From positions 1 through 8,431 of IMG/VR virus record IMGVR_UViG_2713896773_000016: a DNA stretch of 8,431 nt. The stretch is one strand, 5' to 3'. Positions 1 to 8,431 of the stretch are shown in pieces. Each line of letters begins with the position of its first letter. Within the stretch, counting starts at the first letter, position 1. The notes below the pieces were generated by a model. The model was not told where the DNA came from and did not search any database. It was given only the letters and a program-made list of their open reading frames with translations. This stretch comes from a virus. Taxonomy: Duplodnaviria; Heunggongvirae; Uroviricota; Caudoviricetes. A program made the translations under genes and the position numbers.

Positions 1-64
1 GTTGTGTACTTTTTTTCTGGCTGATTTGCACCAAGCTTATCAAAAAAAATGGACAAAATCATGA

Positions 65-1366
65 TTAGCTCTCATTCCCGCGCTCATGCAAGCTCCGGCT
101 GTAAACAGAGTCAGCCGGCATTTCTACGCGCACGGAAACGAAATGATCGGCAGGGATATCTACCGGCTCCCCCTCTTCGATTCCGTCTCGTTCATTTCTG
201 GCGAATACTGGGGCGGTTGGATATGTGCGATGATAAGTTCTAACCAAAATGGAACCGTCCGCATTAACTTCATAATCGAGCCAAATCAGCGGCTGCTTGT
301 TGCGGTCAGTGGGGATATCAAAACCGCCGTCTATGCCTCCCCACGCGGCATCAGCATTAAGCCCCATACAGCCTTCAATGAGATATGCTCCGGTATTAAT
401 ACGGGTTACAGTGCATCCTGCTGACTCATCGTTTAATTGAAATTCACCATCAGAATAAATCTTAACAATCGGAGAGGCAGACTTTATAAATCCACTACTA
501 TCTACCGTTGTGTTTTGGTCCGTCCACATTCTGGTTCGCCATGATTCTGTATTAACATCTACTCCAGAAGCTTTAGTCTGTTTGCACACAACACCAACAT
601 TTTTGGACGAGCTATTGGCATACCAAGTAAAGGCGAAGTTGTTCACACCCTCGTTTGTTTTTGCCGTCAGTTTACCTTCATGACCAGCACCACCAAAACC
701 ACCTGCTGATAAACTTGAATAGTACCAGGAAAAAGAATTTTCACTCTCCGCTGCCGATAGAGGCGGGGCCTTAACAGGGGTGCCAAAACCAAAATCGCCT
801 AAAGAAAGAATATCTCCGGATGTGCTGTAAGCATTGCGTGTGGCGCTACTTCCTAAACCGAGGTTTGTGCGAGCGGCTTCTTTGGTTTTTGCGCCGGTCC
901 CACCCTGGTCAATACTCAATGCTGTACTTAGCCCTTTCAGCTCTGTGATATCGCTATTTGCCCCTTTCCGGGCGAGACCACCGATGGCAGGAATGCTGAG
1001 GCTGGTGCCGTTGATTGTCACAGTGACCAGTTGGTTCGCTGAGGTACTGGCGAACGTTTCCCACGCACCGATATTCTCGTCATACTCATTGATGAGCTGA
1101 GACATGGCCTGTGCCAGTCCATCAACCGAGATAATGTCTGATACCAGAATGCCGTACTTCTGGCCGCTCAGCGCCGGGGAAGCAGCTGGAGTAACCGTCA
1201 TTGACGTGGCGCTATTCACGGATGAAATCTGGAACATCTGAACCGGGTTAGACATGACAATAATCGTCTGGCCAGCGCGAACCTGGCTGGCCGGTGCAGT
1301 CCAGTTTGTACCGGAGCCGGTTGCGGTATTTCCGTTAATAGAGATAGTTCCGGTGCTATAAATCAT
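65..1366 (-). CDS. Phage tail fiber protein (side tail fiber / receptor-binding fiber), 433 aa
   Basis: Seen: ORF 1366->65 with AGGAG 5 nt upstream of the ATG (minus-strand reading AGGAGTTGTTATG). The translation has a Gly/Thr/Ser-rich N-terminus (MIYSTGTISINGNTATGSGTNWTAP...) and the motif LSIDQGGTGAKTKEAARTNLGLG (aa 150-172, plus ~851..917). Established/inference: from memory this QGGTGA...AR.NLGLG motif is recurrent in enterobacterial phage tail fibers; position directly downstream of J agrees. The C-terminal ~140 aa has no motif I recognise. Confidence 0.7.
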   Translation of the reverse strand: MIYSTGTISINGNTATGSGTNWTAPASQVRAGQTIIVMSNPVQMFQISSVNSATSMTVTPAASPALSGQKYGILVSDIISVDGLAQAMSQLINEYDENIGAWETFASTSANQLVTVTINGTSLSIPAIGGLARKGANSDITELKGLSTALSIDQGGTGAKTKEAARTNLGLGSSATRNAYSTSGDILSLGDFGFGTPVKAPPLSAAESENSFSWYYSSLSAGGFGGAGHEGKLTAKTNEGVNNFAFTWYANSSSKNVGVVCKQTKASGVDVNTESWRTRMWTDQNTTVDSSGFIKSASPIVKIYSDGEFQLNDESAGCTVTRINTGAYLIEGCMGLNADAAWGGIDGGFDIPTDRNKQPLIWLDYEVNADGSILVRTYHRTYPTAPVFARNERDGIEEGEPVDIPADHFVSVRVEMPADSVYSRSLHERGNES

Positions 1367-1486
1367 AACAACTCCTAAATTTAGACAACATGAAGCCCGG
1401 AGAGGTATATAACCATCACCAGAAATAATTTCTGAATTGGTTTTTAATACATATTGGGCAACCTTCCAATTGTGTTATAGACTACT

Positions 1487-1520
1487 AAATATTAACCCCT
1501 CAAAAGAGGGGTTAATATTT
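1487..1520 (-). terminator. Perfect 15-bp inverted repeat with 4-nt loop (AAATATTAACCCCTC-AAAA-GAGGGGTTAATATTT), a terminator-like hairpin overlapping the J stop codon
   Basis: Seen: plus 1487-1501 is the exact reverse complement of 1506-1520. The GC core CCCCTC/GAGGGG is followed on either strand by a U-rich stretch (minus RNA ...GAGGGGUUAAUAUUUAGUAG). The J stop codon (1520-1522) sits at the edge of the stem. Inference: intrinsic terminator and/or RNA-stabilising stem-loop at the 3' end of J, possibly bidirectional. Confidence 0.5.
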
Positions 1521-4500
1521 TAACCTGTGAATGAACCAGATCCGTGTGATACTATGATAGTAGGAGAAGAAATGGACGCACCCCTGCCATTTTGAGCGGA
1601 CACTTTAATACTTACTGTTACGTCTGGGCCTGTCACAACCGCAGAATGCATGATAAGTCTATCTGTGTCTTGCACGGATGAACCACTCTCATTACCGTTG
1701 ATATTGATTATTCCCGCACCATTACCTTTAACGTTTGCTATAACACAGACGTGTCTTGCGTGCCCAGAACTGGATGAATCCTTATAAGTCATTACCTTTT
1801 CTAAAGATCCATCGTTATCCCGACTCACATTCGTCCCTGTGTGCATATTTGCAATGTCCCCGATAAAACTTTGGGCTTCCACAGTCCCTTTGAATTTACC
1901 GCTTGTTGCTTGGATCTCACCAGTAAAGCTACCGCCACTAGCATATACTACACCTCTGACGGTCACATTGTTGAATTCAGCATCTCCAGCTTTATTCAAC
2001 TTCCAACCAGCAGAACCAGCTGCATAGTTGTTGGACTGGATATAGTTGCCGATTTTGGCGTTCTCAATGGTGCCGTCCTGGATGAAGCTGGCCCGGATGA
2101 ATGTCTGCCCGTTCTGGATCACGAACGGCAAAGCTACGCTATTTCCGGCTGCCGTGGTGACGGCGAAGCGGTCAGCCAGGAAGATAACCTGCGACTGCAT
2201 GCCGGATGGCGTATTCTCCACGCCGATACCCATCCCCGCGGCGTAATACTGCCCGTTGCTGGAGACACCAACCTTGATGTTATACATCGCGCTGAGTTCG
2301 CCATTAACGTTGGCTATAGCCTGAGCGTTAGTGGTGATGGCGGAGGTATGCCCGTTCACGGTCGCCGTGATGCCGTTTATCTGCGTGGCGGTGGCCTGCT
2401 GATAGTCGGAGAGCGTCTGATTCAGGCTGTTGATGGATGCCTTGTTGCCGTTGACGTCCGTCCGCAGGCTCAGCAATGAACGTGCTGTGGCTTCCTTCTC
2501 ACTGACGATCACCTCGTCGAGACGATCCAGCTGCGCACTGTTACCGGCGACCGTTGCGGAAAGCCTTTTGCGTGTGGCCACCTGCGCCAGTCCGTTCTGG
2601 ATAATGGCAATGGCTGAGTTCTTAACCCCGCCCGTCATGCCGTCCATAGACACGCTGATGCTGTCGATTCGCTGGCCCAGCGCGGTATCAGCCGTTGCGA
2701 CGGTCTGCTCAAGATCTGATAGAGAGGACGACACATCACCGACCGTGCTCGAAAGCTCATTAACACTGGTCTGAACCTGCCCAATGTCCTGCGCGTTTTT
2801 TGCGATTTCCTGCGCCTGGAGCTCAAGTTCATCGTTGGCCTGTTTGATGTCGTCAGCCATGCCAGCAATTTTTTCATTGCTGTCCACCGCGTTCTCGATC
2901 AGGTCTTTGAACGTATCGGAGTCTTTAATTTCCTCCAGAATCACATCTGTGATATCGGAAACATCGATGCTGGCCTGTCCTCGCACCCATTCTGTGTACC
3001 CTGATTCGTTGCCGCTGCGGTCCACCAGCTGCGCGCGGTACCAGAAAATCTGCCCAGCCTTAAGCCCCATCTGCTGATAAAGTTTCTGCGGATACGGTAC
3101 AGATGCCAAAAGCATAGGATTCGAACCGTCAGCGGCAATGCTGTATTGCAGTTCAGTGCTCAGGGTGTCGCCGGTATTAGCCGGGAATCCCCAGGTGACG
3201 TTGATTCCGAATACGACGTCTTCGGAGGCCTTAAGCCCGACAGGTTTGGGTACCTCACCCGCGCGTCCCTTCAGGTGTGTAAGCGCGGAAGTTGCCCAGA
3301 GACTCGATGCGCCGCCGGAGTTGATCGCGCGTACACGGACCAGATAATCACCCTCGAAGATGCCAGGCACTTCGATATTGCGAAGACCGGTCTCCGGTAC
3401 GTTAACCCACTCATTGTCGCCGCGCTTCCACTGCACCCGATAGGCTATGACATCCGCCTGTGGTTTGCCGTTCTTGTCGACCGGCGCATCCCAGGATGCC
3501 GTCAGGGTAGCCACTCGCTGCCCCTGGCGCACTGCGTCATAGCTCGCTACCACGATATTGGTCGGCTGGTTGACGAGGCCGGTTGGTATCAGACTAATTG
3601 GCGGCGTGTCCAGGCGGGCATTGTTATCGACCGCATCATATTTTGATGCGTTATATTCGGCCCCGGTGATAGTGAAGGTGTTTTCTTCATCATCAAATCT
3701 CAGGTTCGTAACGCGGAAGTATTGCAGGCGCAACTGCCCTGCATCGATGACGAATACAGCGTTAGGTAACGGCTCTGCCGTGAAAGGCGTGGCGATCACC
3801 AGCTGCGTGCCGTTTACGGCCTGGATCACCCTGCTTTCGACGGTACCGCCCCGTGTGCGGATCATCAGTGTGTCACCCGCAACGGCACTGGTTCCCCGAT
3901 CGGTTGTCACAGCCTTCAACCCGGCGTTATATCCGGTTATACGCCCGCCATAAACACGCCCTGAAAGGCGTTCGTCAGCAAATGCAAACACGGTACCCGG
4001 CACGTAGACATAGCCATCAAGCCCGGTCTGTAGCGTAATAATCCGGTCGAGTGAGTTGGAATACACCGCCCACCCGCCACGGCGCTGTGCTTCGCTCTCG
4101 CGCGTACAGCCGATTGCGGTGATCTGCGTCTGCTTAAACTTGAACTGCTTAACCAGGTCCGGGAACATCACCGCTGTTGTGCGGTCCTGATAGTGATTGT
4201 CAGGGTCGCTGAAGTTAATCAGCGCGCTGGAGAAGCGGGTCTTTTCACTGCCGCTCGAGTAAACCGGTTTGCCCACCACCGAAGCGCGGGTAAGGATTTG
4301 CAGCTTCGACGTATCCGCCGGCATGTCCGAGACAACATTGAACATGTTGTTGCCCCAGAAAGTCATTCCGTTGAAGCCCGCGGCAATATCTTTAATCACC
4401 TGCCAGGCATCAGCCTGGGACTGGATGTAAACGTCAAACATGAAGCGTGGCTCGGTACCGCTTCCGCCTTTCCCGTCGGGTACCTTCTGGTCGCAGCGCT

Positions 4501-5434
4501 GGGCGATGCGATAGAGCTCCCACTTATCGAGCATTTCTGGCGTCACGCGGCGCCCAAGGCCGAAGCGCGGCTCAGTCAGAACATCGAACCAAATCCACGC
4601 CGGGTTATTCGTCCAGCCCCATTTAAACGTCCCGTCCCATGTTCCGCTATAAGTCCGCGCTATTGGATCATAGTTCGAAGGGATTCGGATGATGCGCCCC
4701 TTCGGCATGCAGGAAATCTTAGGGATGTTGTTGAATGACTTTGCGTTAAAGGACACGTACAGCAGCGCTGTGTGTGGATATCGCAGGCGAGCATCGATCA
4801 CTTCAGTAATCGCTTGCACCTGCGTTTTGTTCTGCAGCATCTGGCTGGTGCTGTCATCGGTGTCACGCACCACTCGAATTTGCCAGCCAGTGCTGGCTTT
4901 GGGAAGATTAATACGGTGGGTTAGTTCATAGAGCGAGCTGAGCTTCTCTGTGACGGTTTTCGTCATGACTGTCGAGTAAGCGCCACCGTCCACCGCCAGA
5001 TCAATATGGTACTGAACCGTAGTGCCGACAATATCCCCATCGTTTTCCTGCTGCTGTAACCCAGGGATGCCAATACGAACCAGCACCGCGTCAATCTGGG
5101 TGTTACTCAGTGCGCGGGTCCATGGTGTGGCCTTTGTCAGCGATACCCCAACCGTAGTTTCATTCTCGACTGCAGGGAATCCCGGTATTGGTGTCTGGGT
5201 CTGTGTGCCAGGCCGGAAATCCCATGACACATTTTCAAAATTCATCGTTCCGTCGGGGTTTCCCAACGGCGTACCGTCCAGGAATATCCGGGTCGCATCC
5301 AGGCCACCAGCAAACTCCCCCTCCCCGAGCGCCAGCAGCATGCGGCAGCGCGCCATTGACTGCGCCGAATCGGGCTGTTCTACAGGTGTGTGCTGCTTCT
5401 GGCTGCCACCCTTTGCACCAGTGATCGCTTCCAT
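1520..5434 (-). CDS. J: Host specificity protein J (central tail fiber / tail tip protein), 1304 aa
   Basis: Seen: 3915-nt ORF. Translation matches remembered lambda gpJ blocks: N-terminal KGGSQKQHTP (lambda KGSSKGHTPRE), QNKT, YSGTWDGTFK (lambda YSGIWDGTFK), CDQKVPDGKGGSGTEPRF (lambda CDQSVPDGFGGTEPRI), a fibronectin-III-like segment (aa ~640-720) and QYYAAGMGIGVENT...VIFLADRFAV (lambda HYVAGIGLSMED...FLVAANRIAF). Established: gpJ forms the tail tip and binds the host receptor through its C-terminal domain. Confidence 0.92.
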   Translation of the reverse strand: MEAITGAKGGSQKQHTPVEQPDSAQSMARCRMLLALGEGEFAGGLDATRIFLDGTPLGNPDGTMNFENVSWDFRPGTQTQTPIPGFPAVENETTVGVSLTKATPWTRALSNTQIDAVLVRIGIPGLQQQENDGDIVGTTVQYHIDLAVDGGAYSTVMTKTVTEKLSSLYELTHRINLPKASTGWQIRVVRDTDDSTSQMLQNKTQVQAITEVIDARLRYPHTALLYVSFNAKSFNNIPKISCMPKGRIIRIPSNYDPIARTYSGTWDGTFKWGWTNNPAWIWFDVLTEPRFGLGRRVTPEMLDKWELYRIAQRCDQKVPDGKGGSGTEPRFMFDVYIQSQADAWQVIKDIAAGFNGMTFWGNNMFNVVSDMPADTSKLQILTRASVVGKPVYSSGSEKTRFSSALINFSDPDNHYQDRTTAVMFPDLVKQFKFKQTQITAIGCTRESEAQRRGGWAVYSNSLDRIITLQTGLDGYVYVPGTVFAFADERLSGRVYGGRITGYNAGLKAVTTDRGTSAVAGDTLMIRTRGGTVESRVIQAVNGTQLVIATPFTAEPLPNAVFVIDAGQLRLQYFRVTNLRFDDEENTFTITGAEYNASKYDAVDNNARLDTPPISLIPTGLVNQPTNIVVASYDAVRQGQRVATLTASWDAPVDKNGKPQADVIAYRVQWKRGDNEWVNVPETGLRNIEVPGIFEGDYLVRVRAINSGGASSLWATSALTHLKGRAGEVPKPVGLKASEDVVFGINVTWGFPANTGDTLSTELQYSIAADGSNPMLLASVPYPQKLYQQMGLKAGQIFWYRAQLVDRSGNESGYTEWVRGQASIDVSDITDVILEEIKDSDTFKDLIENAVDSNEKIAGMADDIKQANDELELQAQEIAKNAQDIGQVQTSVNELSSTVGDVSSSLSDLEQTVATADTALGQRIDSISVSMDGMTGGVKNSAIAIIQNGLAQVATRKRLSATVAGNSAQLDRLDEVIVSEKEATARSLLSLRTDVNGNKASINSLNQTLSDYQQATATQINGITATVNGHTSAITTNAQAIANVNGELSAMYNIKVGVSSNGQYYAAGMGIGVENTPSGMQSQVIFLADRFAVTTAAGNSVALPFVIQNGQTFIRASFIQDGTIENAKIGNYIQSNNYAAGSAGWKLNKAGDAEFNNVTVRGVVYASGGSFTGEIQATSGKFKGTVEAQSFIGDIANMHTGTNVSRDNDGSLEKVMTYKDSSSSGHARHVCVIANVKGNGAGIININGNESGSSVQDTDRLIMHSAVVTGPDVTVSIKVSAQNGRGASISSPTIIVSHGSGSFTG

Positions 5435-5445
5435 ATTACATCCAT

Positions 5446-5470
5446 AAAAAAAGCACCCAATTGGGTGCTT
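5446..5470 (-). terminator. Terminator-like hairpin between I and J: palindrome AAGCACCCAATTGGGTGCTT followed on the minus strand by a 7-U run, ending 12 nt upstream of the J start codon
   Basis: Seen: plus 5451-5470 is a perfect 20-nt palindrome (GC core GCACCC/GGGTGC, AATT centre); plus 5446-5452 is A7, giving U7 immediately 3' of the stem on the minus-strand RNA. Inference: intrinsic terminator or attenuator; function unproven. Confidence 0.45.
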
Positions 5471-5489
5471 GATATTCAGAAAGGAGTTT

Positions 5490-6083
5490 TCAGATGTCTT
5501 CAGCGACTATGCCTGCACTGATGATGGCGCCGCCAATCTCACGGACGCCATAGAGAAGCGCGACCGGGCTTCCCATCGCAAGGGTATTCACCGAGCCACC
5601 AAAGGCATAAGAGGGTTTATTGTCAGGGTCGTCTCGCCCCTGTAACCCTTTGGGCTGAGGTGATAGCATCTGGTAAATGCCGCCTGCCATCATTGACGCG
5701 CCCGACATCGCAAGGCCTGTGCCAAACGTAGCCAAAGTACCGGAGCTAAAGTAAGAAATTGCGATACCAGCCACCACCATCACAGCGCCCAGGATGGTCT
5801 GAAATACTCCGGCTTTTTTCGAACCTTCCATAATCGGCGCAATGCGGATATCACTGTCTCCTGCCAGCTCCTGGAAGTCCTGAGTGCCGATATTCCTTTT
5901 TCCGCGAAACACCGCGAAGATCATGCCATTTTTTTTGGCATTCATCAGATAATCTTCCAGCCCGTCGAAGTTGATACACAGGGCTTTGACCGCTTCGGCA
6001 GATGTCTGCACTGCCAGTTTATGCACACGCCCGAAGCGGGCGCCCAGTGCGCCATACAGACGAATGGTGGTTAAACGCGCCAT
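5490..6083 (-). CDS. I: Tail assembly protein I (lambda gpI-like), 197 aa from the preferred start
   Basis: Seen: the track ORF is 5490..6170, but the ATG at 6083-6081 is preceded by AGGAGA with 7-nt spacing and overlaps the K stop (6071-6073) by 13 nt, typical translational coupling. Translation MARLTTIRLYGALGARFGRVHKL... with an internal hydrophobic Gly/Ala-rich stretch (GVFQTILGAVMVVAGIAISYF). Established/inference: position between K and J plus family-like features support gpI; I could not align to lambda gpI from memory residue by residue. Confidence 0.8.
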   Translation of the reverse strand: MARLTTIRLYGALGARFGRVHKLAVQTSAEAVKALCINFDGLEDYLMNAKKNGMIFAVFRGKRNIGTQDFQELAGDSDIRIAPIMEGSKKAGVFQTILGAVMVVAGIAISYFSSGTLATFGTGLAMSGASMMAGGIYQMLSPQPKGLQGRDDPDNKPSYAFGGSVNTLAMGSPVALLYGVREIGGAIISAGIVAEDI

Positions 6084-6802
6084 GGCTTTATCTCCTGCGG
6101 CAGGTATTTGTGACGAACGCAGATCATCGTGCGGTCTTTGAAATAGCCACGGGCATAAGGCGTGACACACGAGGGCTGGCCGTAAAGATGGTGCAGCAGT
6201 TCGCCTTCTTCAGTGATGATGCCCGCATGGTTCCACTTATCCGAATCAACCTGCATGATGACCATGCAGCCTGGTGCCGGATCGCACTCGACGAATCCTT
6301 CCCGTTCCCAGTTATCAAAATAGAGGTTGTCCGGGTACTGGCTTTCCCACCACGGGTAATCGACGCGAAAATCGTTCAGCGTGACGCCCTGAATGGCGTG
6401 CCAGTCCATAATCAGCCCCCAGCAGTCATTCGAGCCCAGGATAAACGGACGCCCAATAAGCGGCACCGCCTCCGGCATTATCTCGGCGTATTCATCGCTG
6501 TCCGGAGCGTAAATACCCCATACCAAGCCGGAGTTGTTGCACTGCTGGCGGTCCAGATCTGACGGAATAGGCCGGGCACCGTCGCCCGGGTGGGAGTGGA
6601 TGACGCGAATAATCGTCCCGATATCTTCGGCGTTAGCCCAGTGCTCGCCGTCGATGCGAAAATGTTCTGTCGGATTTTCGTGCGTATTCGGCACGGGAAT
6701 GTAGCGCTGGCGACGGCCAGACTGAATAACGAAGCCACAGCACTCACGCGGGGATTCCTCCAGTGCATGCGCCCGGATAGCTGCCATTATGGTTTTATTC
6801 AT
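6071..6802 (-). CDS. K: Tail assembly protein K (lambda gpK-like; MPN/JAMM-type motif plus NlpC/P60-type Cys/His motifs), 243 aa
   Basis: Seen: translation aligns with remembered lambda gpK: IRAHALEESPRECCGFVIQSGRRQRYIPV...PTEHF (lambda IRAHAAAEYPRECCGVVAQKGRRQRYFP...PTEHF), HSHPGDG...S..D (lambda HSHPGG...S..D), NDCWGLIMDW (lambda TDCYTLFRDAY), NHAGIITEEGELLHH (lambda NHAAIYCGDGELLHH). The ATG at 6802-6800 lies 13 nt downstream of the moron terminator and has only a weak SD. Confidence 0.92.
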   Translation of the reverse strand: MNKTIMAAIRAHALEESPRECCGFVIQSGRRQRYIPVPNTHENPTEHFRIDGEHWANAEDIGTIIRVIHSHPGDGARPIPSDLDRQQCNNSGLVWGIYAPDSDEYAEIMPEAVPLIGRPFILGSNDCWGLIMDWHAIQGVTLNDFRVDYPWWESQYPDNLYFDNWEREGFVECDPAPGCMVIMQVDSDKWNHAGIITEEGELLHHLYGQPSCVTPYARGYFKDRTMICVRHKYLPQEIKPWRV

Positions 6803-6811
6803 TGGTACGTC

Positions 6812-6838
6812 CGTAAAAAAACCCGCCGAAGCGGGTTT
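6812..6838 (-). terminator. Rho-independent terminator of the moron gene: stem AAACCCGC / GCGGGTTT, loop TTCG, then a U-run (minus-strand RNA)
   Basis: Seen: plus 6819-6826 aaacccgc pairs with 6831-6838 gcgggttt (8 bp, GC core, 4-nt loop); the minus-strand RNA reads AAACCCGC-UUCG-GCGGGUUUUUUUACGG, a canonical intrinsic-terminator architecture. It lies 7 nt after the moron stop (TAG, 6845-6847) and upstream of the K start. Confidence 0.75.
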
Positions 6839-6844
6839 GGTTAT

Positions 6845-7594
6845 CTAGATGGTTATGGAGAGGTCGGGCCTAACCTTTTTCCTGAGAATGTATTTGCTAA
6901 TGCCAGTCCGTAACGCGGCCTCTTTAAGTTGCATTTTTTCGCCATTCAAAATTACGTAAGGGATTCGGTTTCGTACAGGTTTCGCTAACGCATCTTCGGC
7001 ATTCATACCGGCGTTTAGTCTGTTGTAAAAAGTTGACTCTTTCATGCCATTTGTTTGCCATGCTGCGCTCATAGTTACCGACTCTCCGCTCACGACAACT
7101 TTATGATTATTGCGCTTGTTGCGACCTTGCTCTGTAGCATTTGCCCATCGACAATTGTCTGGAGAATAGCCTTTATTGTTATCTATGCGTTCAATTGAGA
7201 ACCCTTTAGGCTTCTCACCCATGTCATGAGCAAAATTCACGGGGTTGCTCCATTCATCGCAGACTGTTATACCCCGCCCGCCATAGTGGGGAAAGTCCTT
7301 GCAAGCAGGATTTCGACAGCGATCAAGCATAGATGTCCAAGACGAATATCCTGAATAAGCTGTGATTGGCTTGCCATTATGCAGTTTTGTTATTTTTTTC
7401 TTATGATAACAGCCGCAAGAAACAACAGCGCCACTACGGAGTGACCCCATGGAAATGCTCTTAACAACACCACATTCACAAGAGCACAAAAAGTATCTGA
7501 GACCTTTTGTTTTTATATGGCTAGGGGCTTTGGTTTCTTTAATAATTGTAAGATAGCCGTACTTTTCACCCGGAAAAATAGTAATGCGTGACAT
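6845..7594 (-). CDS. Accessory (moron) gene inserted between L and K: 249-aa protein with a Cys-rich zinc-ribbon-like N-terminus, an HNH-like endonuclease-related core and C-terminal HTH-like modules
   Basis: Seen: ORF with SD GAGG 5 nt before the ATG (minus reading ACGAGGTTTATATG), flanked by 99-bp and 42-bp non-coding gaps and followed by its own terminator. Motifs: CSCECG...SCGC (Cys cluster); YSGYSSWTSMLDRCRNP...HYGGRGITVCDEWSNPVNFAHDMGEKPKGFSIERIDNNKGYSPDNCRWANATEQGRNKRNN; C-terminal VILNGEKMQLKEAALRTGISKYILRKKV. Established/inference: from memory this YGGRGI..C..W...F..DMG..P.G.S..RID.N..Y.P.NCRWA...EQ..N pattern is a widespread phage family usually annotated as HNH endonuclease. The position where HNH enzymes carry the catalytic His reads E-R here, so nuclease activity is uncertain. 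Confidence 0.6.
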   Translation of the reverse strand: MSRITIFPGEKYGYLTIIKETKAPSHIKTKGLRYFLCSCECGVVKSISMGSLRSGAVVSCGCYHKKKITKLHNGKPITAYSGYSSWTSMLDRCRNPACKDFPHYGGRGITVCDEWSNPVNFAHDMGEKPKGFSIERIDNNKGYSPDNCRWANATEQGRNKRNNHKVVVSGESVTMSAAWQTNGMKESTFYNRLNAGMNAEDALAKPVRNRIPYVILNGEKMQLKEAALRTGISKYILRKKVRPDLSITI

Positions 7595-7686
7595 ATAAAC
7601 CTCGTAGCAGGTTGCGTAGATGATGGTGCGCGGCAGGAGTGTCTACGTTCACTCTCTTCGACTGGCCAGTCTAGCCGCGCTGACAG

Positions 7687-7692
7687 ATTATA
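7687..7692 (-). promoter_or_regulatory. Candidate sigma70 -10 hexamer (TATAAT on the minus strand) immediately after the L stop codon, ~90 nt upstream of the moron start
   Basis: Seen: minus-strand reading ...TAA-TTATAAT-CTGTCAGCG...; perfect TATAAT but no convincing -35 at 16-18 nt spacing (best is TACCAC). Inference only; it fits the moron architecture of promoter, gene, terminator. Confidence 0.2.
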
Positions 7693-7693
7693 A

Positions 7694-8431
7694 TTACCTG
7701 CTCAGTAAAGTGGTAGCAGGAAATCCACCGTAGTCGAGGATGGCCGCGTTCGGCTCCGCTAGGCCAGCGCCGAACCGTTTACGGCAATCACTGAGGCAGC
7801 CCCCACACGCATCCAGCGGCGGATCAGCCACCGCGTTACCCTTCGCGTCGAAATATGCCGTACCGTTATAGGTGCATCCATCGCCGCTCCGGTACTGCCC
7901 GCGTAGCGCCCATTCGCAGAGCGAGGTGATTTGTCTGGTTGGGATAACAAGCCCCTGCAAGTCAGCGGGGCTACTGAGTGACCATGAAACCACTTCGTCG
8001 TCTTCGGAGGTTTTCGTGTCAAGCCAGAAAGTCTGAAGCGTGAACATCGACGGGTCGGCGGTCGGGTTCACCCCACCAGGGTAATTCACGGCATCGAGGT
8101 AAACCGAATAGGTGTCGATAATGCTCACTTTTGCGTTAACCATGTCCTTAAATTGCAGGCACAGCGCAGTGATATGACCGTCGAGGTTGGAAACGCTAAG
8201 AGACGGCTCTGCCGCCTGGTCTGTTGATAGCTCCAGGCCTGAAACCTGAAACGGCCAAAAATCGTAGATATTGCCACCGAAGACAATTGGCTTGGGTCCA
8301 AGCTTTTCTTCATCTCCATTGGCAGCATCAATTTCTTCCGGCGTATGGGGGAAAGGTGCGTAGTGGAATCGGTGGATTCCGCCACTGAACTCTGAGGCGT
8401 CAACTTCAACCAGGCGTACCCTGCCACCCGG
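7694..8431 (-). CDS. L: Minor tail protein L (lambda gpL-like), 5'-truncated by the window edge (C-terminal 245 codons present)
   Basis: Seen: I translated the minus strand from 8431 down to the TAA at 7694-7696; the frame is open across the whole stretch with no stop (PGGRVRLVEVDASEF...SLSVSNLDGHITALCLQFKDMVNAKVSIIDTYSVYLDAVNY...CGGCLSDCRKRF...). The ATG at 8143 in the ORF track is therefore an internal Met. Matches remembered lambda gpL: TLTVSNLYGMVT / YARFLDAVNF / CSKCLSGCKFR. Confidence 0.88.
   Translation of the reverse strand, partial: PGGRVRLVEVDASEFSGGIHRFHYAPFPHTPEEIDAANGDEEKLGPKPIVFGGNIYDFWPFQVSGLELSTDQAAEPSLSVSNLDGHITALCLQFKDMVNAKVSIIDTYSVYLDAVNYPGGVNPTADPSMFTLQTFWLDTKTSEDDEVVSWSLSSPADLQGLVIPTRQITSLCEWALRGQYRSGDGCTYNGTAYFDAKGNAVADPPLDACGGCLSDCRKRFGAGLAEPNAAILDYGGFPATTLLSR

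Follow-up and report, generated by a model that had tools for sequence, protein, structure and literature searches.

We examined an extra gene cassette that lies between tail genes L and K in an 8,431-nucleotide stretch of DNA from a Caudoviricetes virus (IMG/VR record IMGVR_UViG_2713896773_000016, positions 1 to 8,431; this whole stretch is called the window below). The host of the cassette is an HK639-like lambdoid Escherichia coli prophage. On the minus strand of the window the genes follow one another in the order L (7694 to beyond 8431), an open reading frame (ORF) of 249 amino acids (aa), K (6071..6802), I, J, and a tail fibre gene. The product of L matches Phage_tail_L at 6.9e-41, and that of K carries JAB and NlpC/P60 domains. 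An earlier note on this DNA had described one extra gene between L and K that forms a self-contained cassette. This is borne out when the window is aligned with the empty sites in phage HK639 and E. coli 21AR0133, with an insertion of 880 bp (6814..7693, minus strand) against an empty spacer of 12 nucleotides (nt). The cassette ends at the L stop codon on one side and at CGGACGTACCA-ATG of K on the other, and it replaces a single C of the spacer. Neither a target duplication nor terminal inverted repeats are seen when its ends are aligned with the empty sites. The cassette is foreign in composition, with a GC content of 43-46% versus 54-60% in the flanks.

The ORF (6845..7594, minus strand; stop codon TAG at 6847-6845) appears, from its matches to HNH families of the PHROG collection and from an AlphaFold (AF2) model, to encode a free-standing endonuclease-type protein. 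Its ATG at 7594 lies 99 nt from the L stop codon (TAA, 7696-7694), and is preceded at 5 nt by the Shine-Dalgarno (SD) sequence GAGG (7603-7600). A -10-like hexamer, TATAAT (7687..7692, minus strand), adjoins the L stop, and transcription from it is predicted to start near 7680, which is the first base of stem P1 of the RNA leader described below. At the other end, a clear intrinsic terminator, AAACCCGC-TTCG-GCGGGTTT followed by a run of seven T's (6815..6838, minus strand), ends 12 nt before the ATG of K (6802). The earlier note had listed the 99-bp gap, the TATAAT, the SD, the 249-aa ORF and the terminator, and all of these are present, accurate to a few bases; the terminator itself stands, and only its distance from K had been given as 13 nt. 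The moron architecture claimed there holds for the extra gene, the deviant GC content, the separate SD and the terminator, and is reduced to a conserved -10 for the promoter. A truncated or frameshifted gene L (a 149-aa ORF is listed) was considered and rejected: the frame is open to the end of the window and aligns without gaps to full-length L, and the listed ORF is only the portion from an internal ATG.

The boundary elements recur in relatives of the cassette. Five diverged lineages have a -10-like hexamer behind the L stop, which reads TATAAT in three, TGgTATACT in one and TAAAAT in one. The terminator hairpin is identical in the window and in two related loci (L004 and L008), although the proteins are only 70-78% identical, and the same hairpin is also found 3' of unrelated cassettes of the HNH_3 family. 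A consensus terminator scan did not call the hairpin at 6838-6815, apparently because, as we read the criteria of the scan, its maximal stem takes in part of the T-run; a 66-nt stretch around it folds no better than shuffled sequences (z -1.33). The conservation of the hexamer and the terminator, together with that of the ORF, which has 7,356 homologues in a word-indexed search (nearly all without a Pfam domain among the matches listed), indicates that these elements are more than chance occurrences.

Empty sites and recent transfer

Twelve complete E. coli genomes had matches to a 1.3-kb query spanning the region. The whole segment is present in two of them at 98.8-98.9% identity; in the other ten the flanks in L and K match but lie about 420 bp apart, and L and K are separated by 12 nt in these ten cassette-less prophages, as they are in phage HK639. 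The earlier note had pointed to the L-K junctions of related prophages as the place to look for variable presence, and it is found there, with two of 12 E. coli genomes carrying the cassette and HK639 lacking it.

These empty sites, in ten E. coli prophages and HK639, also bear on the possibility that the gene is a conserved, co-transcribed tail-tip component or assembly factor, for which uniform presence would have been expected in that note. The gene does run in the direction of the tail genes within the late operon, and a short form in three other loci (L005-L007) is packed 12-15 nt from its neighbours. However, L and K are intact in HK639 and in the ten of 12 related E. coli prophages that lack the gene, its composition is foreign, and its homologues occur at unrelated genome positions and in other phage types. 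A tail role is contradicted by the empty sites, and so improbable in our view as to be nearly negligible.

Transfer was followed by sliding identity plots, to which five IMG/VR prophage contigs were added. Identity of the cassette is 98-100% across no fewer than six backgrounds (the window and L022, L019, L020, L021, L023, and E. coli VREC0761), and the L and K/I/J flanks of these backgrounds differ by 5-35%. Between about 7831 and about 6690 the window has 100% identity to E. coli VREC0761, the outer flanks of which reach only 80-90%. The outer flanks of the window are, by comparison, 95-100% identical to the cassette-less prophage of E. coli 21AR0133. The cassette has thus moved between phage backgrounds recently, and in this it behaves as a homing element and not as a moron that benefits the host.

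The last 57 nt or so of gene L (7694..7750, minus strand) are inherited with the cassette every time, as seen both in the sliding identity plots and when L 3' ends of cassette-positive and empty loci are compared. In one contig (L023) the L sequence in common with other carriers is limited to this tract. About one third of the last 42 nt differ from the alleles at empty sites, and the encoded peptide stays similar (LDYGGFPATTLLSR vs LDFGGFPATVLFIR). From its sequence, the tract could be either a co-conversion tract or a cleavage-resistant allele.

More distant homologues, at 78, 70, 67, and 58% identity, each occupy the L-K junction in other lambdoid tail modules. A scan of the genome contigs returned only distant relatives. 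An intact copy of the cassette is present in Kluyvera. A 161-aa homologue (P0005) was considered as a decayed copy and rejected, since the Kluyvera gene is an intact 249-aa ORF that had been called from an internal Met. The copy in Kluyvera cryocrescens (L085 2120-2990) has a chimeric leader: its 5' half is of the window type, and its 3' half, together with the N-terminal part of the coding region, is of the L004 type. This chimera indicates recombination inside the cassette and spread across genera. Taken at this junction, the distribution is that expected of a homing gene: the element is sporadic, it occupies a precise site of which intact empty versions exist, it is near-identical (98-100%) within flanks of 65-95% identity, and it is linked to a tract of at least 57 nt.

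A structured RNA leader

The sequence between the hexamer and the ORF is a structured 5' leader (7598..7681, minus strand), recognised by an Rfam match, a minimum free energy (MFE) fold and covariation. It consists of the int-alpA motif followed by a hairpin that holds the SD. P1 (7680-7674/7634-7628) encloses two hairpins, P2 (7671-7668/7663-7660) and P3 (7654-7650/7641-7637), the latter with the loop AACGUAGA at 7649-7642. Downstream on the same minus strand lie box 1 (UCUACG, 7620-7615) and P4 (7613-7609/7602-7598), whose loop GCUACG (7608-7603) forms box 2. The MFE fold contains P1 to P4; in P4 the strands AACCU and AGGUU surround GCUACG, with the SD GAGG (7603-7600) in the 3' strand. The earlier note had the length of this 99-nt gap right, and noticed neither that the gap is an int-alpA leader nor that the cassette has moved recently.

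Rfam family RF02996 (int-alpA) matches 7681..7614. The score, 39.4 bits, exceeds the gathering score of 35.8, and E is 2.2e-6 for 1.1 kb of sequence and 1.7e-5 for the window as a whole. The match is lost under the fast filters of Rfam, and a fast-filter run at the gathering threshold on 143 kb missed all leaders, which makes that negative uninformative. Related leaders score 32-42 bits to RF02996, that is, around the family threshold. The motif was reported as one of 224 candidate structured RNAs (Weinberg et al. 2017, PMC5737381). Rfam classes it as a small RNA (sRNA). The leader shares with RF02996 the three-way junction, in which P1 encloses two hairpins, and the CUAG and CGAA joiners. In contrast to an sRNA, it serves here as a 5' leader whose spacing to the -10 and to the SD is fixed, and it has in addition the SD hairpin, the loop-box pairings and endonuclease genes downstream. 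We know of no function assigned to int-alpA and of no earlier functional context for it, so that a leader of endonuclease cassettes with pairing to the ribosome-binding site (RBS) region would be the first.

The long gap is found in three lineages (the window, L004 and L008), with conserved blocks and compensatory changes such as GCGCGGC/GCCGCGC versus GTCCGAC/GTCGGAC. Across 16 distinct leaders, 89.8% of the P1-P3 positions are paired, compared with 30-46% when the partners are slid, and both sides have changed in 11 of 16 pairs, with none of 500 shuffles as high. A covariance model search added three divergent copies, in which the P3 loop reads CACAG, CUCAG or CGUC instead of CGUAG. The loop of the SD hairpin carries matching changes in all three, and the upstream box in two, the box of L075 being imperfect. 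For P1-P4 plus the loop-loop pairing, with the divergent copies included and with the P3 loop and both boxes fixed by the search pattern in most of the leader sequences, 94.2% of positions are paired (30-48% in slid controls) and both sides have changed in 20 of 26 pairs (again 0/500 shuffles as high). Pairing of the P3 loop with box 1 has covariation support equal to that with the SD-hairpin loop. A simple leader hairpin between CGTAGA and TCTACG had been considered, and was replaced by P3 and the loop-box pairings on the covariation evidence.

The position of the leader and the covarying pairing with the SD region point to a function in the mRNA. This matters for a further explanation, that the cassette is an insertion sequence (IS), a transposon or an integron-like cassette moved by a recombinase that acts on the folded element. 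A conserved structured element beside variable ORFs does recall cassettes of the attC type (compare PMC5737381). However, the structured element here is on the sense strand, where the -10 precedes it and the SD follows, and its pairing with the SD region shows covariation; the cassette has no transposase or integrase, no inverted repeats and no target duplication. We regard movement by a recombinase as very improbable, and these absences of repeats, target duplication and transposase rule out the transposon or IS form of it.

The leader is not confined to this gene. A pattern built from its conserved blocks found 24 metagenome loci, and the instances we have comprise the window, L004, L008, L019, L060-L084, and L086. 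It precedes differing ORFs: six kinds are of the HNH_3 family (three with a detectable AP2 domain), two are T5orf172/MUG113 proteins with treble-clef fingers, and one is unidentified. It also precedes a 265-aa ORF with a canonical-looking HNH motif and no Pfam HNH match. Judged by eye, the leader-framed cassettes lie between late structural genes, among them those for portal, Mu-F-like head morphogenesis, scaffold-like, capsid, connector, and tail chaperone proteins; the annotation of phage Skate confirms the portal and head morphogenesis neighbours. In nearly all of these cassettes the first stem is preceded, at a distance of a few bases, by an extended -10 (TGgTAtAAT), and most of them end in a GC hairpin and T-run, often the same AACCCGCTTCGGCGGGTTTTTT. 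The earlier note had found an HNH-type gene out of place in a tail cluster. This expectation fails, as endonuclease genes behind this leader are found at many junctions of late structural genes.

Among complete E. coli genomes the leader is present in four of 5,426. In the tail module of another E. coli prophage, a leader found by BLAST stands before a gene annotated as HNH endonuclease. The leader also occurs in 53 phage records, mostly of Salmonella phages and some of Klebsiella and Enterobacter phages. Many of the Salmonella phages with the leader are presumably Jersey-like, in addition to Skate, and we take the Jersey-like phages and Skate to be virulent. At one locus (L081 9056-9635) an intact leader is followed by an HNH_3/AP2 gene that is split into ORFs of 56 and 115 aa. 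This is apparently a decayed copy, as judged from its reading frames, of the kind expected in the life cycle of homing endonuclease genes.

The occurrence of the same leader and cassette type in phages taken to be virulent bears on another reading, in which the cassette is a moron that benefits the host and the prophage: a nuclease made from the resident prophage's own promoter would cut superinfecting related phages, and homing would be incidental. In the virulent phages expression from a prophage is irrelevant. The promoter is moreover weak by consensus, and the PADLOC models of defence systems gave no match (0) to the 249-aa protein. The moron architecture, the conserved -10 and the insulating terminator fit such a role, and marker exclusion by homing endonucleases is known (PMC2988022). 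As an explanation in place of homing we consider it distinctly unlikely. A role in defence or exclusion from the prophage is, however, compatible with homing, and overlaps with it rather than excluding it.

A protein family without the catalytic His

The 249-aa protein has no match in Pfam (0 at E<=1) or NCBIfam, and searches of PDB sequences with the single sequence and with a profile returned only chance matches, none of them to the restriction enzyme PacI. It does match PHROG families named HNH endonuclease at 1e-59 to 1e-5 (phrog_374 at 2.8e-59, phrog_3377 at 2.6e-52), as well as one named restriction endonuclease. In sequence clusters at 50% identity the family comprises 210,158 representatives at E<=1e-3 and 87,622 at E<=1e-30. 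A homologue is present in 944 sequenced phages, where it is annotated as hypothetical, HNH endonuclease, AP2 domain protein or restriction endonuclease. This is thus a very large phage family without a Pfam or NCBIfam match or a solved structure. The earlier description as a zinc-ribbon, HNH-like and helix-turn-helix (HTH) protein holds broadly, and fails in the HNH profile test.

The AF2 model (mean predicted local distance difference test score, pLDDT, 95) divides the protein into three parts, all encoded on the minus strand. A predicted N-terminal zinc ribbon (residues ~8-66; 7397..7573) forms a small beta-barrel with C39, C41, C60, and C62 in the pattern CxCxCG...SCGC. The core (residues ~78-162; 7109..7363) is helical and ends in a beta-beta-alpha motif like the His-Me finger, composed of b1 (133-136), an omega-loop (137-147), b2 (148-151), and a helix (153-158). 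Two HTH-like modules (residues ~165-205 and 213-245; 6860..7102) follow, as judged from the secondary structure of the model and from Pfam matches within the family. Family members have weak matches to HTH families of Pfam that include I-TevI_DNA-bd (1.8e-6) and NUMOD1. These two are DNA-binding modules typical of homing endonucleases.

The beta-hairpin followed by a helix, which the model shows, is the arrangement that forms the nuclease core of the His-Me finger superfamily. The candidate active site consists of E/D135, R136, Y143, N147, Q156, and N159. In 84 homologues these positions are conserved to 98% (D/E135), 100% (R136, Y143, and N147), 95% (Q156, the rest Asn), and 99% (N159), and D138, N139, and W150 are also invariant or nearly so. 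The conserved cysteines of the core are only C93, C112, and C148, the Cys4 site being in the separate N-terminal domain. Of the catalytic residues, whose retention the earlier note had left to be checked, the canonical His at the end of strand 1 is replaced by an invariant Arg, and there is a likeness, held with moderate confidence, to the His-less type represented by PacI.

PacI is the sole characterised HNH enzyme without this His; it uses a Tyr, and its metal is held by Asp and Asn (PMC5714182, PMC4081073). Group 20 of the His-Me superfamily, to which it belongs, is defined by the absence of the His and by an omega-loop Tyr in its role (PMC5714182). The cassette protein likewise lacks the His, and its invariant Y143 lies, by sequence and model, in the loop between b1 and b2, where it would take the part of the PacI Tyr. 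A 2025 paper described apparent family members inside methylase genes of mycobacteriophages, modelled them on PacI and argued for homing, without biochemistry; its authors were themselves unsure whether such proteins are HNH enzymes (PMC11855218).

Similarity to R.PacI (PDB 3LDY/3M7K) is not detectable in the sequence. PacI is a homodimeric restriction enzyme of 142 aa with two Cys4 sites, whereas the cassette protein has 249 aa, a separate zinc ribbon, two HTH modules and three conserved core Cys, and occurs in a mobile-element context. Foldseek searches of the PDB with the full and the core-only models gave nothing at E<=0.001, and PacI appeared only at a non-significant E 1.1-2.4. The HNH_3/AP2 proteins (the I-HmuI group, PF13392) resemble the cassette protein in the layout of the motif, (D)H/R-x-D-N...N-(L/C)-R...T..E-N/Q, in the modular combination of a nuclease with HTH or NUMOD-type modules, and in that their genes occupy the same leader-framed cassettes. 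They differ in that the cassette protein has His to Arg and Asn to Gln changes at catalytic positions and no Pfam HNH_3 match. An hhalign comparison with HNH_3, whose seed had only nine homologues, is weak (E 0.11); in it the catalytic His is aligned with R136, the motif's central residue with N147, and the Asn that binds the metal with Q156. HNH_3 is matched by four of the 84 family members (best E 0.055). The structural comparisons, which use a predicted model, lend moderate support to a nuclease fold. With the same moderate confidence we assign the protein by resemblance to the beta-beta-alpha superfamily as a PacI-like, His-less member, not as a proven nuclease.

A protein in which the catalytic His is missing in every member (84/84), with no Pfam HNH match and with three putative DNA-binding modules, might instead be a catalytically dead derivative of an HNH-type endonuclease, like SMAD MH1, that acts, for example, as a regulator, exclusion or partition factor, its cassette spreading solely through ordinary homologous recombination between mosaic lambdoid phages. 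Groups of the His-Me superfamily that have neither the His nor the Tyr are regarded as inactive (PMC5714182), and the doubt expressed over the mycobacteriophage proteins (PMC11855218) points the same way. However, an invariant omega-loop Tyr, an acidic residue, an Asn, and a Gln or Asn at the positions used by PacI are the pattern expected of an active site. The gene is also interchangeable behind the same leader with canonical HNH_3 genes and with T5orf172 genes of the GIY-YIG superfamily, and the linked tracts, the at least six backgrounds and the fidelity to the L-K junction down to 58% identity fit break-driven conversion better. We consider a dead derivative, which is the main rival to an active homing endonuclease, to be unlikely.

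Many family members are far longer than the cassette protein: among a set of such proteins (P0130-P0278) are some with up to 11 tandem N-terminal zinc-ribbon modules, and others with at least two whole units of core plus HTH. In phage APSE-7 (L015 3001-3483) a homologue of the core domain is in frame inside an annotated DNA polymerase ORF, which suggests, from the sequence, an intein-like or fused insertion.

Proposed mechanism and known relatives

We think it fairly probable that the cassette is a free-standing homing-endonuclease-type gene with moron architecture, inserted precisely in the L-K spacer. Its transfer follows the pattern of the free-standing homing endonuclease genes of T-even phages (PMC2988022). 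Several observations weigh against this reading. The canonical His at the end of strand 1 is Arg in 84 of 84 homologues, and we found no biochemical test of any family member in the literature. The TATAAT at 7692-7687 has no acceptable -35 (the best fits at 3/6 positions) and no TG, and was not called by a consensus promoter scan, which passed over it because a usable -35 is missing. As the search pattern fixed the loop and boxes in most leaders, the evidence for the pseudoknot comes down to three divergent ones. Lineages L005-L007 and L009 at the L-K junction have neither leader nor terminator and lie 12-46 nt from L and K. In L005-L007 the gene (6001-6555 of L005) encodes 184 aa, also lacks the zinc ribbon and is 12-15 nt from its neighbours; the L009 form is at 1543-2304. 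The leader and terminator are thus not obligatory, nor, from L005-L007, is the zinc ribbon, and these forms may be streamlined or decaying versions. Finally, ordinary homologous recombination among lambdoid phages could also put one cassette in several backgrounds. However, site fidelity down to 58% identity, together with identical cassettes and short linked tracts in at least six backgrounds, fits break-driven conversion better than random mosaicism.

Cleavage and its target, the activity of the promoter and the regulatory effect of the leader are what we infer in the following scheme. The cassette would be transcribed within the late tail operon and possibly also from its own -10, in which case the transcript would start at the base of the structured leader. 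This leader would fold into the int-alpA three-way junction and then the small hairpin that holds the SD, and its P3 loop would pair with the loop of that hairpin or with the identical upstream box, so that translation of the nuclease would be low or switchable, as we suggest from the analogous hairpins that sequester the RBS in T4 endonuclease genes. The 249-aa protein would bind DNA through its zinc-ribbon and HTH modules and cut the empty L-K alleles of related phages by means of a beta-beta-alpha-metal site that lacks the His and resembles that of PacI. In this site Tyr143 may act as the base or nucleophile, Asp/Glu135 with Gln156/Asn159 may hold the metal, and Arg136 may contact the phosphate. 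Repair of the break from a cassette-bearing genome would copy in the cassette and a short piece of L ('intronless homing'), and the cut would also exclude markers of the competitor. The terminator would insulate K from transcripts initiated in the cassette, and antiterminated late transcription would read through it.

The T-even phages' free-standing endonucleases are known for intronless homing, co-conversion and marker exclusion, and their genes are under RBS-sequestering hairpins (PMC2988022). The cassette resembles the Seg and Mob genes among these, which are intergenic between conserved essential genes, sporadic, and flanked by co-converted sequence (PMC2988022). In contrast to them, it resides in the tail operon of a temperate lambdoid prophage and encodes a different nuclease family, and its RNA is a conserved multi-stem motif common to many cassettes, whereas the T-even genes have idiosyncratic hairpins with an internal late promoter. 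Morons of lambdoid phages are reported (Juhala et al. 2000, Hendrix et al. 2000) to be extra genes, each with a promoter and a terminator of its own, inserted between two genes that are neighbours in related phages. Like them, the cassette adds a gene where relatives have a tight junction, its GC content is deviant, and it carries a flanking -10 as well as a terminator. It differs in that its cargo is a selfish endonuclease-type gene and not one for lysogenic conversion, that its promoter is putative, and that the cassette type occurs also in phages taken to be virulent.

A wider claim, made jointly for leader and protein, we advance tentatively and as possible rather than probable. In its first part, int-alpA, in this subfamily at the least, would be a dedicated translational control element of free-standing endonuclease genes, in which the P3 loop forms a kissing contact with the SD-hairpin loop or pairs instead with a decoy box of identical sequence. 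The promoter (an extended -10), riboregulator, endonuclease and terminator would form a portable frame into which HNH_3/AP2, T5orf172 and PacI-like genes are swapped at many late-operon junctions of enterobacterial phages. In its second part, the protein family may be a large unrecognised class of His-less, Tyr-dependent beta-beta-alpha homing endonucleases.

Free-standing HNH-type genes, morons, and the label 'HNH endonuclease' for this protein family in phage annotation were already known. What appears to be new is the change of His to Arg throughout a very large family that has no Pfam match and keeps an omega-loop Tyr invariant, the link of the orphan int-alpA motif with endonuclease cassettes, and the covariation-supported pairing of the leader with the ribosome-binding region. 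A 'hypothetical protein' of a tail operon becomes a testable selfish element with a defined empty target in HK639, and the mechanism of int-alpA is now directly testable. The motif of the family suggests tyrosine chemistry of the PacI type. Should the proteins prove active, sequence-specific nucleases could be drawn from them as a new source, and they would account for marker exclusion at the local scale and for the mosaic joints of lambdoid tail genes.

The junction between tail genes I and J carries insertions of its own in related prophages. In some carriers of the L-K cassette a second one lies there, as in L019 (leader at 5098-5208) and in the Kluyvera prophage (L085 4440-5237). It has a variant leader, with CACAG in the P3 loop and CUGUG in the boxes, and a 265-aa ORF that ends in HGHHDDY...CPQCH, which resembles a canonical HNH motif, and has no Pfam HNH match. 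In E. coli VREC0761 (L001 6664-7784) the same junction holds the IS3-family element ISSen4, the frameshift element of which was found by Rfam, and this insertion indicates that the prophage is probably defective. In the window the I-J junction is only 55 nt long.

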